A stretch of DNA of 64,000 nt. It comes from Octopus vulgaris. Taxonomy: Eukaryota. The stretch is from positions 80,352,001-80,416,000 of the forward strand of contig OX597818.1 of assembly GCA_951406725.2 (NCBI GenBank). The letters run 5' to 3'. Of the stretch, positions 1,770-57,275 are shown piece after piece. The notes under the pieces were generated by a model, which saw only the letters and a program-made list of their open reading frames with translations, made no database searches and was not told where the DNA came from. Made by a program: the position numbers and the translations under genes. Within the stretch, counting starts at the first letter, position 1; each line of letters starts with the position of its first letter.

Positions 1770-2270
<501 letters not shown>

Positions 2271-2711
2271 CAGTAAATAAAGGGCGTGACAGAAAACTTC
2301 CGGTATTTTACATGGCCATTGGTGAGGTAGTAGTATAGTTAGTAAAGTGATATGATGGTGCCTTCATGTAGATAACGTTTTATCGTGTTTTCAGTTGCCA
2401 TCACGACGTGGATCGGTGTACACCGTGCCTTTTCTTTTGAAACATGAACTGCACACACTAGCATTGACCACTTCCCAGCATCCACACCATCATCCACACA
2501 CCTACACATGCACACACACCAGCCCTCATCAACACGCACACACACGCTCTCACATACACACGCACGCGCACCTTGATTTTGGGACAACCACTACTTTATT
2601 ATCTCCCTTTCTTACTAGCTCTCCTGCCTGACCACCTCTGTCCGGCCATCGCCATGATTGACCGCTAGCCACTAAAGCTTTTTTATTCTCTCTGTTTATT
2701 TTCTCGAATTC

Positions 2712-2747
2712 CTTTCTGCTGAAGAGCGTAGGCTCGAAGCGTAAAAG
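2712..2747 (+). ncRNA. degenerate minimal type I hammerhead motif (Penelope-type terminal repeat)
   Basis: CTTT-CTGCTGA-A-GAG cgtagg CTC-GAAG-CG-TA-AAAG; stems I and II pair; two core substitutions. Confidence 0.5.
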
Positions 2748-2854
2748 ACTTTTCTCACGTTCCCGAGTGTTAAACTATTACACCTGTTTGTTGTTTACAC
2801 ACCTGTGTTCGTCTTTTGTTTTTTGTAAATTTCAACTAGTGAATAGACTACGAC

Positions 2855-2947
<93 letters not shown>

Positions 2948-3583
2948 TCTTTTATTCGTTTCACTCATTTGACTGCAGCCATGCTGGAGTACTACCTTTA
3001 GTCGAACAGATCGACCCTTTGTAAGCCTAGTATTTATTCTATCAGTCTCTTTTGCTGAACCACGAGGATGTAAATACACTAACATCGGTTGTCAATGTGT
3101 TAGAAAATATCGCAAGATGCACGGTAACACACCGTTGCATCGGAGTCAAGTCTCGGTGGGTGGAAAATGTTCCTGAGAGCGCCTTGGGCGCATGTAGGAA
3201 CAAGAGACTTACATCACCCGAGGAAAGAAGTTTAGAACTATTGAGGTGAGATCGGGGACGAAAGAAGAAGCTAGATGTAATTCTGCAACCACTTTGAAGA
3301 ACGACAACTTTTTCTTAATCCCCAGCTATCGCGGTCAACGCCTTGCCAAGATAAGGGTGCTGAATGGGCCGCCAGAAATATCCATTACCTGATTAGTGGT
3401 GGCCGTCTTGGCAGGTTTAGAAGACGAAGTCACTTGTTTCCGTCTACCAAATCCACTCACAAGGCTTTGGTCGGCCCGAAGCTATACTAGAAGACACTTG
3501 TCCAGAGTGCTATGCAATAGGACTGAACCCAGAACCATGTGGTTGGTAAGCAAGCTACTTACCATAGAGCCACTCGTGTGCCT
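2948..3583 (-). mobile_element. SINE family B interrupted by a LINE ORF1 fragment
   Basis: SINE 3' half at 2948-3095 and 5' half at 3436-3583 flank foreign sequence. Confidence 0.85.
3097..3433 (+). repeat. 337-bp near-identical copy of 7560-7896 (LINE ORF1 fragment)
   Basis: Direct comparison: GT(G/T)TAGAAAATATCGCAAG through GAAGACGAA(G/A)TCAC in both places. Confidence 0.95.
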
Positions 3584-3664
3584 GTATATATATATATATA
3601 TGTAAATATGTAGGCACAGGAGTGGCTGTATGGTAAGTATATATATATATACATATATAATATT

Positions 3665-4035
3665 TTACCTTTTACTTGTTTCAGTCATTAGACTGTCATC
3701 ATGCTGGGCATAGCCTTGAAGAATTTTAGGCGAAAGAATCGACCCCAGTACTCTTTTTTTTTAAGTCTGATATCCGATCGCTTTTACGGGGACATAAACT
3801 CACTAACACCGGTTGTTAGGCGGTAGTAGGGAAAAACAAAGACACAAGGATACACACACACACACACACACATACACAATCACTCACATATATGTACGAC
3901 AGGCTCTTTCAGTTCCGTCCACCAAATCCAATCTTTGGTCGAAGACACTCACCCAAGGTGGCACGCAGTGAGGCTGAACCCAGGACTATATAGTTGGGAA
4001 GTAAGCTTCTTACCACACTGTCACATCTGCACCTG
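3665..4035 (-). mobile_element. SINE family B
   Basis: TTTTACTTGTTTCAGTCATT tail and reverse tRNA head CTTCTTACCACAC. Confidence 0.8.
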
Positions 4036-4879
4036 TATATACCGCTTTTTTTTTACCACTGATATAACCTTGGAGCCTTCGCGCTGACTCCTACGCAAAG
4101 CCTCATTGTAAAAGAAACAGATTTTTAACCCGCACAGAAGGTCATATATTTAGTAGTGCTAAATTAAGTATTTTGCAAAATGAAAGAAAGAAAAAAAAAA
4201 ACCAAAACCAAAAACAAAATAATTTTCTTAAAATCCAGTCAGCTACATGATATTTAATGGAAGAATATAGAATTCCATTTGCCAAAGAATTATTAGAAAA
4301 ACTACAAAGAGAGAAAATCCATTGTGACATATTGACGCCTCTTCAATTTCCTTTTTTTAATACACAGATATTGTAGACAGATTTTGCTAATAATGTAGGT
4401 TATGTCAAAAACTACAGACGAGAAAAGCTGGAAAACTAAACAAGATTATTAAAGAAAAAAATATTTATTAAAGCTGAACTCTAAAAATCTCTTACTAATC
4501 TAGAATGTATAGAATGCTTGTTAAGGAAAAGAAAGAAGCCTGGTTGAACAATTAGTGTAAACAGCATTTTTATAGCTTTGTATTAATAACATTTTCCACC
4601 AAAATATTAACTTACGTTATAAGGTGAAGGTAATAAAACTGATCATGTCTGGCTAACAGTATATATGTGTGCATTCATATATATTTTACATGATGTACTT
4701 TTTTTTACTGTTTTAATAGTTTTAATCATAGGATACTATATTCAGCAGTTTAGGTTTTCGTATTGGCTCTGGTACTTATTTTATCGATCTCTCTTTATCG
4801 GAGATGGGGCGCTAATTTAACGTTTTTTTTTTATTTAGAGTAGGCGTCAGCAAACTTCTTCTATCATTGATAGCTTATC

Positions 4880-5240
4880 GACCCCCATCATGGGAAATTC
4901 TAAAAATGAATGAAAAACTGTTAATTAAAAATAAAAATTTAAAAAATTCTCGATTTAAATGCAATTATTCATTCGCTCCTCCAAATTCCACATATATATA
5001 TATTTTTTGTCATTACTGCTTTTTAAGAAATAATTTCAAGAAATTTAATGAAAATACTTAACGAAATTCATAAAGAACAATAAAAATACTCAGTGATATT
5101 AATACATTGCTATAGTCTGAATATTTAATGTGAAATACGGATTTGGTGACTACTAGTTATTTGTATTGATATTTGGTTAGAAATGAATGAGTTTTAGCTT
5201 TAAATTACAGCACACTTAAGGATTCAGTCCGCTATTAATT
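4880..5240. repeat. AT-rich interspersed repeat, second copy at ~51560-51870
   Basis: Shared CTCGATTTAAA.GCAAT.ATTC and AAGAAATTTAATGAAAATACTTAAC blocks. Confidence 0.7.
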
Positions 5241-50860: not shown

Positions 50861-51179
50861 ATATTTCGCTTAAGCATTTTGAGACTAATAACCTGGTTAT
50901 GCTTCTGAAGAAAGTGTTAGATGAGTATAGAGCGGTAATAAGAAAAAGAGATGACACAGGAAAAACAAATGTTATGTTATGAACTTCATTGGGATCTGGG
51001 TTTCTGGAGACGGTTTAAATGTATTCTTAAAATATTATAACAAGCTATGAAAAGTAATGAGTTAAATATTTCACAGATTCAAATTAATACACTTCTGTTT
51101 GATATTTATTAATCAACTTAAAATTTTTGTACACAGTAAAGAACAATACAGGTACAAATTTATACAGTTCTAAAGTAGA

Positions 51180-53903: not shown

Positions 53904-54347
53904 TTTATTACATAAGACACTTTGAGCTTTGGTGCCTCTTTAAATATTCTGTTATATTTACCACACATATACATTCGTATTCATGAACGTATGCGTACAC
54001 TCGGTCTGTCAGCCAGGTGCGCACACATATAAGCAGGCACATAAGCATACACGCAATCCCACCACTCCTACAACAGCTACAGTTAAGAGAATATTACATT
54101 TAATCTTTAATCTGGGATTATTGTCGTCTGCGCCTTATCTTGTTAACAGTTAATCAATCGACAACTGTTTGCGCTAATATCAATATAGTGATAGCTAAAC
54201 AGACACAAATACACACAATTAGTCAGGATGAGCACGCTTCTATGATTGTTTACAATCCTTCTGGTGTTTAGATAATGCGGGCATAGATAGAAGACCAGAG
54301 ACGGAATCAACATAAATCTGCTTGTGTGACGACATCCATCTACCTTA

Positions 54348-54401
<54 letters not shown>

Positions 54402-54457
54402 CGCCCGTCCGTCCGTCCGTCCGTCCATCTCTCCCCCTATCTCTGTATGTATGTTTG

Positions 54458-54501
<44 letters not shown>

Positions 54502-54536
54502 TATATACATACATATATGTACATACCTACATATAT

Positions 54537-54579
<43 letters not shown>

Positions 54580-55405
54580 TATATGAGCACAGGACATCCA
54601 AAAAACGTTGAACACAATGAGAAACGGAAACATAAAAACAAAAACATAGAAACGAACTTTTTTCAAACAACGAAAAAAATAGAGAAACGACACATACAAT
54701 GAATATTCCCCTTCTTCAGTTGTCCCTGTTTTATCTACTCCGCGTTTCGAAGGTAAGAACAAGACGCGACTTCGTTGAAGCAGTCCTTCCCGCAAAGCAA
54801 ATTAAATAAAATTCGGGATTTTTTGCGGTGGGTGAAAGTGATAACAAGAACAGGACAGTGGGAACAAAACATTAAAAATAAAAATAAAAAAGTAAAAACA
54901 GTAAAAGACAGAACAATGAGAACAAAGCAGTAAAAACAAACTATGAGGGTTGTTAAGCCAAGACGATGGAAAAATTATTCTGAACGTTTAAGGAGACAGC
55001 TTATGAAGAGACAGGATAAGCCCGTTTAGTCTTTGTGAAGGTAGTAGTCGGAAAGATGGATTCCCTCTCATCACGTATCAGCGACGAGATAGTCGAGGAG
55101 GAGGAGGAGTGAGAGAGAGGGAACGGTGAAGGGGAGAGGAGAAGAATAGGGAAATATATAAATATATATGGATAGATAGATAAATAGATCTATTTGTGTG
55201 AGTGAGTGTGCGTGCGCGCGTCCGATTCATATATAGGTTTGTTAATCAAAGCACGAAAATAGAACTCAAAATGTGTGTATATATATATATTTTTATTATT
55301 AATCGGCAGAAGTTACCGAGTGACTCAAGGGCCAAAAGTTTCGCACACACACAGGCACGCATATACACATAAACACACACACACACACAATATTTTTTAT
55401 AGCTA

Positions 55406-55570
55406 ACAAAGGAACAAGAAATTAAATAATGGACTTCATTAGCTTACAGCTGTTTCTGCTACTAGATGCAACGTACTCATAACCGAGTTTTTGCGTTTCA
55501 CATCATAGCTTCGTCGGAGTTATGAGTGCATTGCAAAGGAAGTTCATTACATAATATCTTGTTCCCTTGT
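55406..55570 (-). ncRNA. long foldback enclosing hammerhead-like motifs
   Basis: 32-nt outer arms (27 matching); inner type I fold with CCGACGA and GAAA cores; extra GAAACAGCTGTA half-site. Confidence 0.6.
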
Positions 55571-56234
55571 CATTTATTTCTTATTATTGCTCTGTACTCG
55601 ACTTATCCTTTTGTTTTTGAAGCATATTTATATTAAGTACCGACACCAGGTTATTAGTATCGATATGCCTAAATGATTGTACTTACTCTAGAAAAGATCA
55701 GGTGAAGGCATACATGCGCACATGTGTATGTGTGTTTGTGTCTGTATGTGTGCGTGTGTGTGTGCGCGTTTGTGAGTGTTTGTGTGTGCATGTACAAATA
55801 TCTTTATTCACATATCTGTAAAAATGTCTATTTGATGAATGGTGTTGTTTATATCTTTCCTGATGAGATTGATGCACAGCCGACCATAATTCTTCCTGTC
55901 AGGCGTATTTTATCTGCAGAGACTGATGCAGTGGAATGACCAAGATGTCTTATCTCATCTTGCTTTCTACATTTCACAATGCATTATTACAGCCGCCTTC
56001 CCTTCCGTTGAACCATGAAGGTTTCTTCTGCACAGTCCGCCGGAACCAATCATCAATGCATAAATAGGCAAGCCCTAATACGCCAATCAAGCCGCAGAAG
56101 GGATCCTGACAGGAACTGCTATTCCAAATGAGAGGAGACCTGCAAACAATATTGGATAAGAAGTGTTCCACCCGACCTCAAACCCTGGAACTCTCGAACC
56201 GGGACTTCACTGCCAGATGCACTACTAGGACATG

Positions 56235-56403
56235 AGGCTTGCTTCCCACCGACATGGTTCAAGGTTCAGTCCTACAGCGTAGCACTTTGGGCAAGTGTCT
56301 TCTACTATAGCCTCAGGCGCCGACCAAAGCCTTGTCAGTGGATTTGGTATGCAGAAACTGAAAAAAGCCCGTCGAATATATATATATATATTCGACGGGC
56401 TTT

Positions 56404-56408
<5 letters not shown>
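56235..56408 (+). mobile_element. SINE family B 5' half ending in a snap-back palindrome
   Basis: Family B head motifs; palindrome 56359-56408. Confidence 0.85.
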
Positions 56409-56461
<53 letters not shown>

Positions 56462-56822
56462 TGACCGGATAACTGAAGAAATGGCGGCGTGGGATTCCGC
56501 CTCGACATCCGAAACTCGGAGTTTTATCATGCCTGCCGAATAATTGTCACGTATTATATTTACTGATATATATACGTGTGTGTGTGTTTGTAAGAAATAT
56601 ATTTTACTTTGTATTGTATAGTTTTATTAAATATTACGATATTTTATCAACATTCCGAAAGTGCATCATAAATTTCAAGTTCACTTTGGATGTTTAAAAT
56701 TTTATTTATTTATTGCTTCCAATTCGAACGTGCACGTATGGATACTCATCACAATATAGACGCATTGGAACTATACCCACCAAACATTAGACACGTATAT
56801 TTATGGTGGTTGTTGACCCGAA

Positions 56823-57275
56823 GACGAACATGACCATCGCAGACAAATATTCTTATTTTAGAGGATAAAGACAATGGCTGTTAGCAATGGTCGTGCTGAA
56901 ATTTAAAATCAATAACGACTTGCACAGTATTGCTAAGACTCACACCTATAAAGCCAAATGGTCCAGACACAAGCGAGAGCAAGATCTGCTTCGCAATGAA
57001 GTGGATGTTAATTCTGAATTTCCTTTTTCTGGAGAGATGGCTAAACAAAGACTAGGGATCTCCCGCTTCCAGCTGTTAAGTGGCCGTTGGCTCTACTGAG
57101 TTCATCCCTCTTTTGACACGTTTTGTTTTCGTCCTGTAGGGTACCCACCAAAAACTACTCTCGTTACTAAGCGGGCTACGTAGGGTGGACAATTTTAGTT
57201 GCCGACGGTCTGACCATGCGATAGTTTGTACTGGGTTACACGATACCAATAACACTAGAGGTGACTACCTGACAT
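56823..57275 (-). mobile_element. second copy of the 34790-35241 element
   Basis: Colinear similarity. Confidence 0.65.

Follow-up and report, generated by a model that had tools for sequence, protein, structure and literature searches.

Head-to-head truncated repeat ends, likely Penelope-like, and a single predicted hammerhead in a foldback of Octopus vulgaris

The foldback at positions 55406-55570 of the window, i.e., of the whole 64,000-nucleotide stretch of Octopus vulgaris DNA analysed here, is best explained as two truncated repeat ends lying head to head, likely inserted in one event by the enzyme of a Penelope-like element (PLE, RT + GIY-YIG) and carrying a single hammerhead motif, whose folding the foldback would, by prediction, prevent. 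We assign this reading a probability of roughly 85%. The evidence consists of two distinguishable arms, two sites at which the 3' ends of the family fall, the repeat family itself, one motif where two had been proposed, and stubs of comparable layout made by a young element of the same genome.

On the minus strand, the 165 nt of the foldback have a minimum free energy (MFE) of -57.7 kcal/mol (z = -7.27), and 0 of 200 shuffled sequences was equally stable, in line with an earlier note on this DNA, which had described a 165-nt foldback. A recount confirmed its 27 matches in 32 positions for the outer arms, the second, inner long stem is also real (15 of 18 positions of the inner arms match), and every motif string that it quoted lies where it was placed. 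Its hairpin was thus correctly recognized, but its right boundary was not, as the inverted arm continues on the plus strand to 55676. The following features were annotated at the locus.

55373..55389, plus strand: (CA)n microsatellite near the short end of arm 1 (sequence; family-wide microsatellite bias)
55406..55521, minus strand: arm 1, a 5'-truncated repeat copy, short-ended and without tail (nhmmer, profile positions 222-337, 88.7 bits)
55518..55519, no strand: head-to-head junction with a 2-nt overlap (AG) compatible with both arms (sequence)
55518..55676, plus strand: arm 2, an inverted 5'-truncated copy, long-ended with a tail of ~100 nt (nhmmer, from profile position 262, 88.4 bits)
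55536..55538, plus strand: position of the net deletion of 26 nt by which arm 2 lost the 3' core (nhmmer alignment; MFE structure)

Both long stems represent arm-to-arm pairing, because a second, inverted copy of the repeat adjoins the first. Arm 1 carries the complete hammerhead motif and is 80% identical to the family majority over 116 nt, while arm 2 (84% over 164 nt) begins near the apex of stem II, ends at family position 224 and is devoid of either core half. Since arm 2 starts late, the loop of the foldback is the arm 1 segment beyond its reach; since it also carries the deletion, the 3' core of arm 1 is bulged from the foldback. The AG overlap would correspond to microhomology at the junction. 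Contigs of three runs (X1, X3, X5) span the junction, which is therefore not an assembly artefact. A target-site duplication (TSD) was sought at the window locus and none was found. A second, 3'-only fragment of the same family is present at 50861-50990 on the minus strand (profile 303-452), beginning a few nt beyond the cut site predicted below.

The repeat is abundant in the genome searched, which is 2.8 Gb and microsatellite-rich. The best 40 of 380 candidates obtained with the 165-mer all match, at 72-89% identity (self excepted), other family segments used as queries returned 1317 and 1278 candidates, and a 26-mer spanning the 3' core gave 283 exact matches, versus 0 for its reversed control. 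Genome BLAST, a check suggested in the earlier note, thus places the sequence in a dispersed family and not among single-copy DNA. Based on ~0.91 identity per site, the copy number may be roughly 2,000-5,000. After the exclusion of 16 ids (duplicates, including segmental ones), a profile scan of L001-L135 yielded 146 pieces from 103 loci, these being top BLAST matches and not a random sample. Mean identity to the majority is 88% and the best 95% (87 copies), so the family appears to be old.

The arrangement of the pieces in these 103 loci recalls that of the window. Thirty-five pairs are head-to-head (28 within 60 nt), none is tail-to-tail and eight are on the same strand, with seven of the latter being collinear pieces of one copy. 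The 3' ends cluster at two sites ~100 nt apart (59/146 and 58/146 pieces), and 24 of the 28 close pairs combine one short and one long arm. Microsatellites were detected at most 40 nt past the end in 36/59 and 30/58 pieces, respectively (66/117 overall), compared to 12% of random positions. The 5' ends of the arms are variable, 28 out of 56 falling at profile positions 198-238, around the 5' side of the hammerhead, and the position of the junction differs widely among the 28 close pairs. Direct tandems or head-to-tail monomers were absent from the 103 loci with 1.5-kb flanks, within which a unit >1.5 kb could escape. Family-like pieces were also present in four presumed RNA contig sets, whose contigs carry no information on strand, end or level. 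Long near-perfect DNA palindromes were observed near family copies in L204:2409-3948 (1546 bp, 97%) and L008:1867-2313 (447 bp, 96%).

Concerning the hammerhead, the order of the motif in the family is AGCT, 5' core, A, an 11-pair helix, an internal loop, a 7-pair hairpin, A, GAAA, CAGCTG, UA and AGCT. Its parts in the window are listed below.

55511..55517, minus strand: hammerhead 5' core C3-A9, CCGACGA, a C4 variant (alignments; CpG-decay counts)
55457..55510, minus strand: stem II region of 54 nt, with an unpaired A at either end (55510, 55457) (alignment, folding)
55499-55509 with 55458-55468, minus strand: lower helix of stem II, 9 of 11 pairs in the window
55496..55499, minus strand: inner GAAA of the earlier note, a private substitution and no core (1/107 copies; no preceding helix)
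55484-55490 with 55473-55479, minus strand: upper hairpin of stem II, 5 of 7 pairs in the window
55445..55456, minus strand: hammerhead 3' core, comprising GAAA, the self-complementary 8-mer ACAGCTGT (55446-55453) and U16.1-A17
55441..55444, minus strand: 3' strand of stem I, AGCT (sequence)

The type I core order C3-A9, G12-A15.1, U16.1-H17 is present in the window, with C4. A short stem II with G10.1-C11.1 directly beside G12 is absent, its place being taken by the 54-nt region with an extra A on both sides. The stem I partner at 55518-55521 reads AACT and forms three of four pairs, because the junction cuts into it. Every core letter is kept in 27 of the 84 full-span copies (C or U allowed at position 4), two of which (L003, L004) also retain stem I, the palindrome and at least nine stem II pairs; stem I and II pairs are 76-94% intact across the family. 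An inter-molecular duplex of ACAGCTGT is predicted at -11.1 kcal/mol. The hammerhead is predicted from its sequence to cut between 55445 and 55444. This corresponds to the site after GUA (55445/55444), the only one of the two sites proposed earlier that the family supports, while the one after CUC (~55485) finds no support in it. The element GAAA-CAGCTG-TA with its palindromic stem III was rightly recognized and is family-wide, and the attribution to a type I hammerhead of the Penelope/retrozyme kind, located in a repeat family, is likewise supported.

The nested arrangement of ribozymes that had been proposed does not emerge from the same data, as its two "half-cores" together make up a single hammerhead, whose 5' and 3' parts are separated by the 54-nt stem II. 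With an MFE of 0.0, the 11 nt that separate CCGACGA from the first GAAA do not fold into a helix. This GAAA is restricted to one of 107 family copies, namely the window, the commonest form being GATA (54/107). No other core having stems II and III of its own was found to be conserved in the family.

Covariation, whose analysis had also been suggested, was not seen for the stems in the alignment of family copies, with at most four double changes per pair; the variation of the stems fits neutral decay from few sources, and at two stem sites that are dimorphic (17, 33) pairing is retained as a wobble. The hammerhead models of Rfam, a further check named in the earlier note, gave no match up to E = 10 in 54000-57000, in L003 or in the ORF-linked motif of L176, and since the latter is also unmatched these models appear to miss such variants generally. 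The hammerhead fold thus rests on motif and complementarity. In an intact copy, with the foldback absent, the lowest-energy fold was computed at -26.0 and the hammerhead fold at -20.8. None of the 56 arm 5' ends lies within 3 nt of the predicted cut, profile ends being accurate to several nt.

The cytosine at position 4 deserves separate attention. Among the first 100 of 141 pattern matches, positions 4-5 read CG in 24, TG in 46, CA in 21, TA in 2 and other letters in 7, as counted by hand with a pattern that left positions 4-8 open. The respective figures in a set obtained with a coreless query (n = 21) were CG 2, TG 9, CA 7, TA 1 and other 2, which resemble those of neutral CpG sites downstream. 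CA at positions 4-5 is best explained as a decayed ancestral CG, and C4 was likely ancestral in about two-thirds of the copies, with U4 sources accounting for about a quarter. A comparison of 1733 site pairs did not reveal a subfamily linked to C4. U4C has been described as a natural hammerhead variant with reduced activity in vitro that still allows viroid infectivity (Perreault et al., 2011, PMC3088659), and recent hammerhead descriptors accept CYGANGA (PMC13481778). A short repeat unrelated to the family, seen on the minus strand in L152 and L188, also contains a minimal hammerhead with this CCGACGA core.

A parent ORF was also sought. The longest copies have at least ~800 nt upstream of the hammerhead in common, a part that proved to lack open frames when read in all six. 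Visual inspection showed a DKG-like string there, on the opposite strand, which was dismissed as chance, and a further step upstream reached a different repeat family and not an extension of the parent. When the PLE proteins of the genome were used in tblastn, one marginal match was obtained in 135 loci plus the window; 20 extended loci gave no meaningful RT/GIY-YIG match and 30 GIY-YIG loci no match to the family profile, in a search that covered a small share of the family copies. No prior description of the family, or of C4 in PLE hammerheads, was found in mostly open-access literature, Repbase and Dfam excluded. Three family motifs, looked for because of a possible link to Naiad elements, were absent from the available text of the supplement of Craig et al., a weak result given that this text is line-wrapped. 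Judged from sequence, the family behaves like the end of a PLE and is a candidate member of this group, neither a linked ORF nor a tandem having been found in the loci searched.

It is possible, if unlikely, that the family represents a protein-free, retrozyme-like element and not the 3' end of an autonomous one, in which case its RNA circles would be copied in trans by a Penelope enzyme and the insertion would proceed in the same way. The common upstream part without an open frame and the lack of a PLE protein close to the copies are consistent with such an element. However, the animal retrozymes described in the available text of PMC7229834 are tandem units of ~300-390 bp and no head-to-tail monomer repeat exists in the 103 loci, while an old family would lose most of its full-length copies under either model.

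The head-to-head stubs of the preferred reading have a living counterpart in this genome, in which at least 150 GIY-YIG matches were recorded. A young element, found in L194 (G000:C1:27840500-27850499) and also in L176 and L195-L200, forms a 4271-bp tandem unit with frames of 454 and 775 aa, the latter matching GIY-YIG and scoring 29.5 bits for RVT_1, just below the cut-off of 29.6. Its CxxxxCxxC linker is taken by us to suggest the Neptune clade. An assignment by this linker agrees with PMC8557442. The hammerhead of the young element gave 1146 exact pattern matches, the first 100 of those listed comprising 98 CCGAAGA, 2 CCGAATA and no U4, and it combines a basal U-U mismatch in stem II with a palindromic GTAC. 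Six chosen close inverted pairs of this element are head-to-head stubs in (TA)n, each with a tail of ~30 nt on one arm (read by eye). An RT + GIY-YIG element in this genome therefore makes the same stub layout.

Several other hammerhead-like motifs were noted, and the type I core with a palindromic stem III also occurs in at least six other repeat families of the genome. A second young element (L166, L168-L175) has a 781-aa RT + GIY-YIG frame and, ~870-1100 nt past the ORF, a hammerhead-like motif with a U3-A8 core variant in 9/9 retrieved copies. L167 / L144 (G000:C1:183005500-183013000) belongs to another family and forms a near-perfect head-to-head pair; its core is canonical and its stem II region measures 59 nt. 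Single examples of type I hammerhead-like motifs are found in L088:55 (plus strand, stem II region of 51 nt), in L173 (minus strand, 42 nt at offset 7202 and 16 nt at offset 2762) and in L171 (minus strand, 28 nt at offset 7218), the last having a C4 core. An AT-rich repeat family (L230, L236, L238, L241; 948 candidates) carries a hammerhead-like motif with a stem II region of roughly 60-100 nt and a CG-rich palindromic stem III, several of its loci being head-to-head by eye. The GIY-YIG match in L153 (G000:C30:5221180-5221329) has the look of an exon of a host SLX1-type nuclease and not of a retroelement. The 3' end of Naiad_Obim in the supplement of PMC8557442 has GAAAC before CTGATGA, i.e., in reversed order, and no link to the window family was seen in the text available.

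A MITE or foldback DNA transposon, with the outer arms as terminal inverted repeats and the hammerhead letters incidental, would account for a short, non-coding sequence with inverted ends and many copies. Nevertheless, we consider it very improbable, as a close partner arm exists in only 28 of the 103 loci, the 3' ends fall into two clusters but the 5' ends are variable, no TSD was found, and all core positions occur in order together with a palindromic stem III, as they do in the other families mentioned.

Turning to the state of the locus, the hammerhead copy in the window is probably dead. The earlier note was right in suspecting this, but the deviation in CCGACGA is not mainly due to decay, since C4 looks ancestral. 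The pair probability of stem II is 0.0 in the 165-mer compared to ~0.5 in arm 1 alone, and the hammerhead fold of the window reaches -9.9 versus -57.7 for the foldback, so that the foldback is predicted by modelling to destroy stem II and block the hammerhead. A contig of organism B, a related species, shares the locus and shows a 24-nt deletion from 55495 that eliminates CCGACGA, along with four further differences (one contig, one sample). In the family, wobble-keeping and wobble-breaking transitions are equally frequent (0.075 vs 0.074, p = 0.61) and a strand-asymmetry test was negative. The copy has likely decayed neutrally after insertion. Co-option of the hairpin as a host regulatory RNA, e.g., a small-RNA precursor, could be imagined from its predicted stability on both strands and from the sharing of the locus with organism B; it appears highly unlikely to us, because the arms differ at 8 of 50 positions, close to the general decay of the family, and organism B carries the deletion and differences just described. 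Finally, the self-cleaving terminal cassette of the earlier note, a hammerhead within a hammerhead cutting after CUC and GUA, can claim a strong foldback and both motif strings but is hardly tenable, given that the inner GAAA is private and the inner stem II absent, the junction position varies among the 28 pairs, the bulge is due to the deletion in arm 2, the core is deleted in the organism B contig, and the long stems of the supposedly working cassette stem from a second inverted copy.

As to how such a pair may arise, the enzyme would nick both strands of an AT-rich or microsatellite target and start cDNA synthesis internally on the RNA, at two places separated by ~100 nt. Each cDNA would end prematurely, either at the stem II hairpin or close to it, and a short overlap would join the two into a head-to-head, one-tailed pair. 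The hammerhead of the source RNA may have cut slowly after GUA, either as a dimer through the palindromic stem III or with the aid of protein. A Penelope protein has been reported to cut and extend both target strands, with two internal RT starts defining the tail, and in that system the hammerhead depended on protein, while insertion in vitro could proceed without the hammerhead (PMC11167929). Self-priming on an antisense template has been proposed instead (PMC3846280); the present data are compatible with either route, although the unequal arm ends on both sides are more simply fitted by two priming events.

The window locus, a decayed stub in a known layout, matters little by itself. Hammerheads with a C4 core and long stem II appear to be common in the Penelope-type repeats of this genome and are missed by Rfam, so counts of such ribozymes are likely too low. 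A tentative idea, which we regard as doubtful, is that Penelope-type elements of this lineage repeatedly use deliberately weakened hammerheads, with C4, a basal stem II mismatch and, in five or more unrelated families, a stem II arm of 42-80 nt; this long arm would bind or pause the element's protein, licensing cleavage only in the RNP and setting the cDNA stop and the inversion. Whether Penelope hammerheads must cut is an open point in PMC11167929 and PMC8557442, and the young, intact RT + GIY-YIG element with its near-fixed C4 offers a natural test of the need for cleavage.

Compared to known systems, the family shares with the animal non-LTR retrozymes of PMC7229834 and bioRxiv 10.64898/2026.07.22.740005 its non-coding nature, a type I hammerhead and a proposed Penelope-dependent mobility, while it differs from them by the absence of tandem monomers and by its dispersed, 5'-truncated copies. 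The core change is identical to that of the U4C variant (PMC3088659), although here it is found in animal retroelements, being likely ancestral in most of the window family and near-fixed in the young one. With the type I hammerheads of PLEs (Cervera and de la Pena, 2014, PMC4209133) the family has in common the order of the core, a 4-bp stem I, the palindromic stem III and the extra nucleotide after A9. In contrast, its stem II spans 54 nt, with an internal loop and a second hairpin, whereas 7-8 bp are called larger than usual in the text available; it also places A against A where stem II meets the core, and about two-thirds of its source copies likely had C4. The Hydra/Chlamys table in File S2 of PMC8557442 includes cores in which an additional nucleotide flanks stem II on either side, and the same file contains an ACAG..CTGT-type stem III as well as one plant PLE whose 9-bp stem II carries a long loop.

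The closest match is provided by the EN+ PLEs, for which inverted 5'-truncated pLTRs with a one-sided tail have been described (PMC8557442; PMC3846280). At ~100 nt, the family's tail exceeds the 30-40 nt reported, and no linked ORF, partial tandem or TSD was seen for the window family. However, head-to-head arms, variable 5' truncation and a one-sided tail are alike in both (PMC8557442; PMC3846280; PMC11167929), as are the microsatellite or AT-rich flanks and a type I hammerhead located 130-230 nt from the 3' end.
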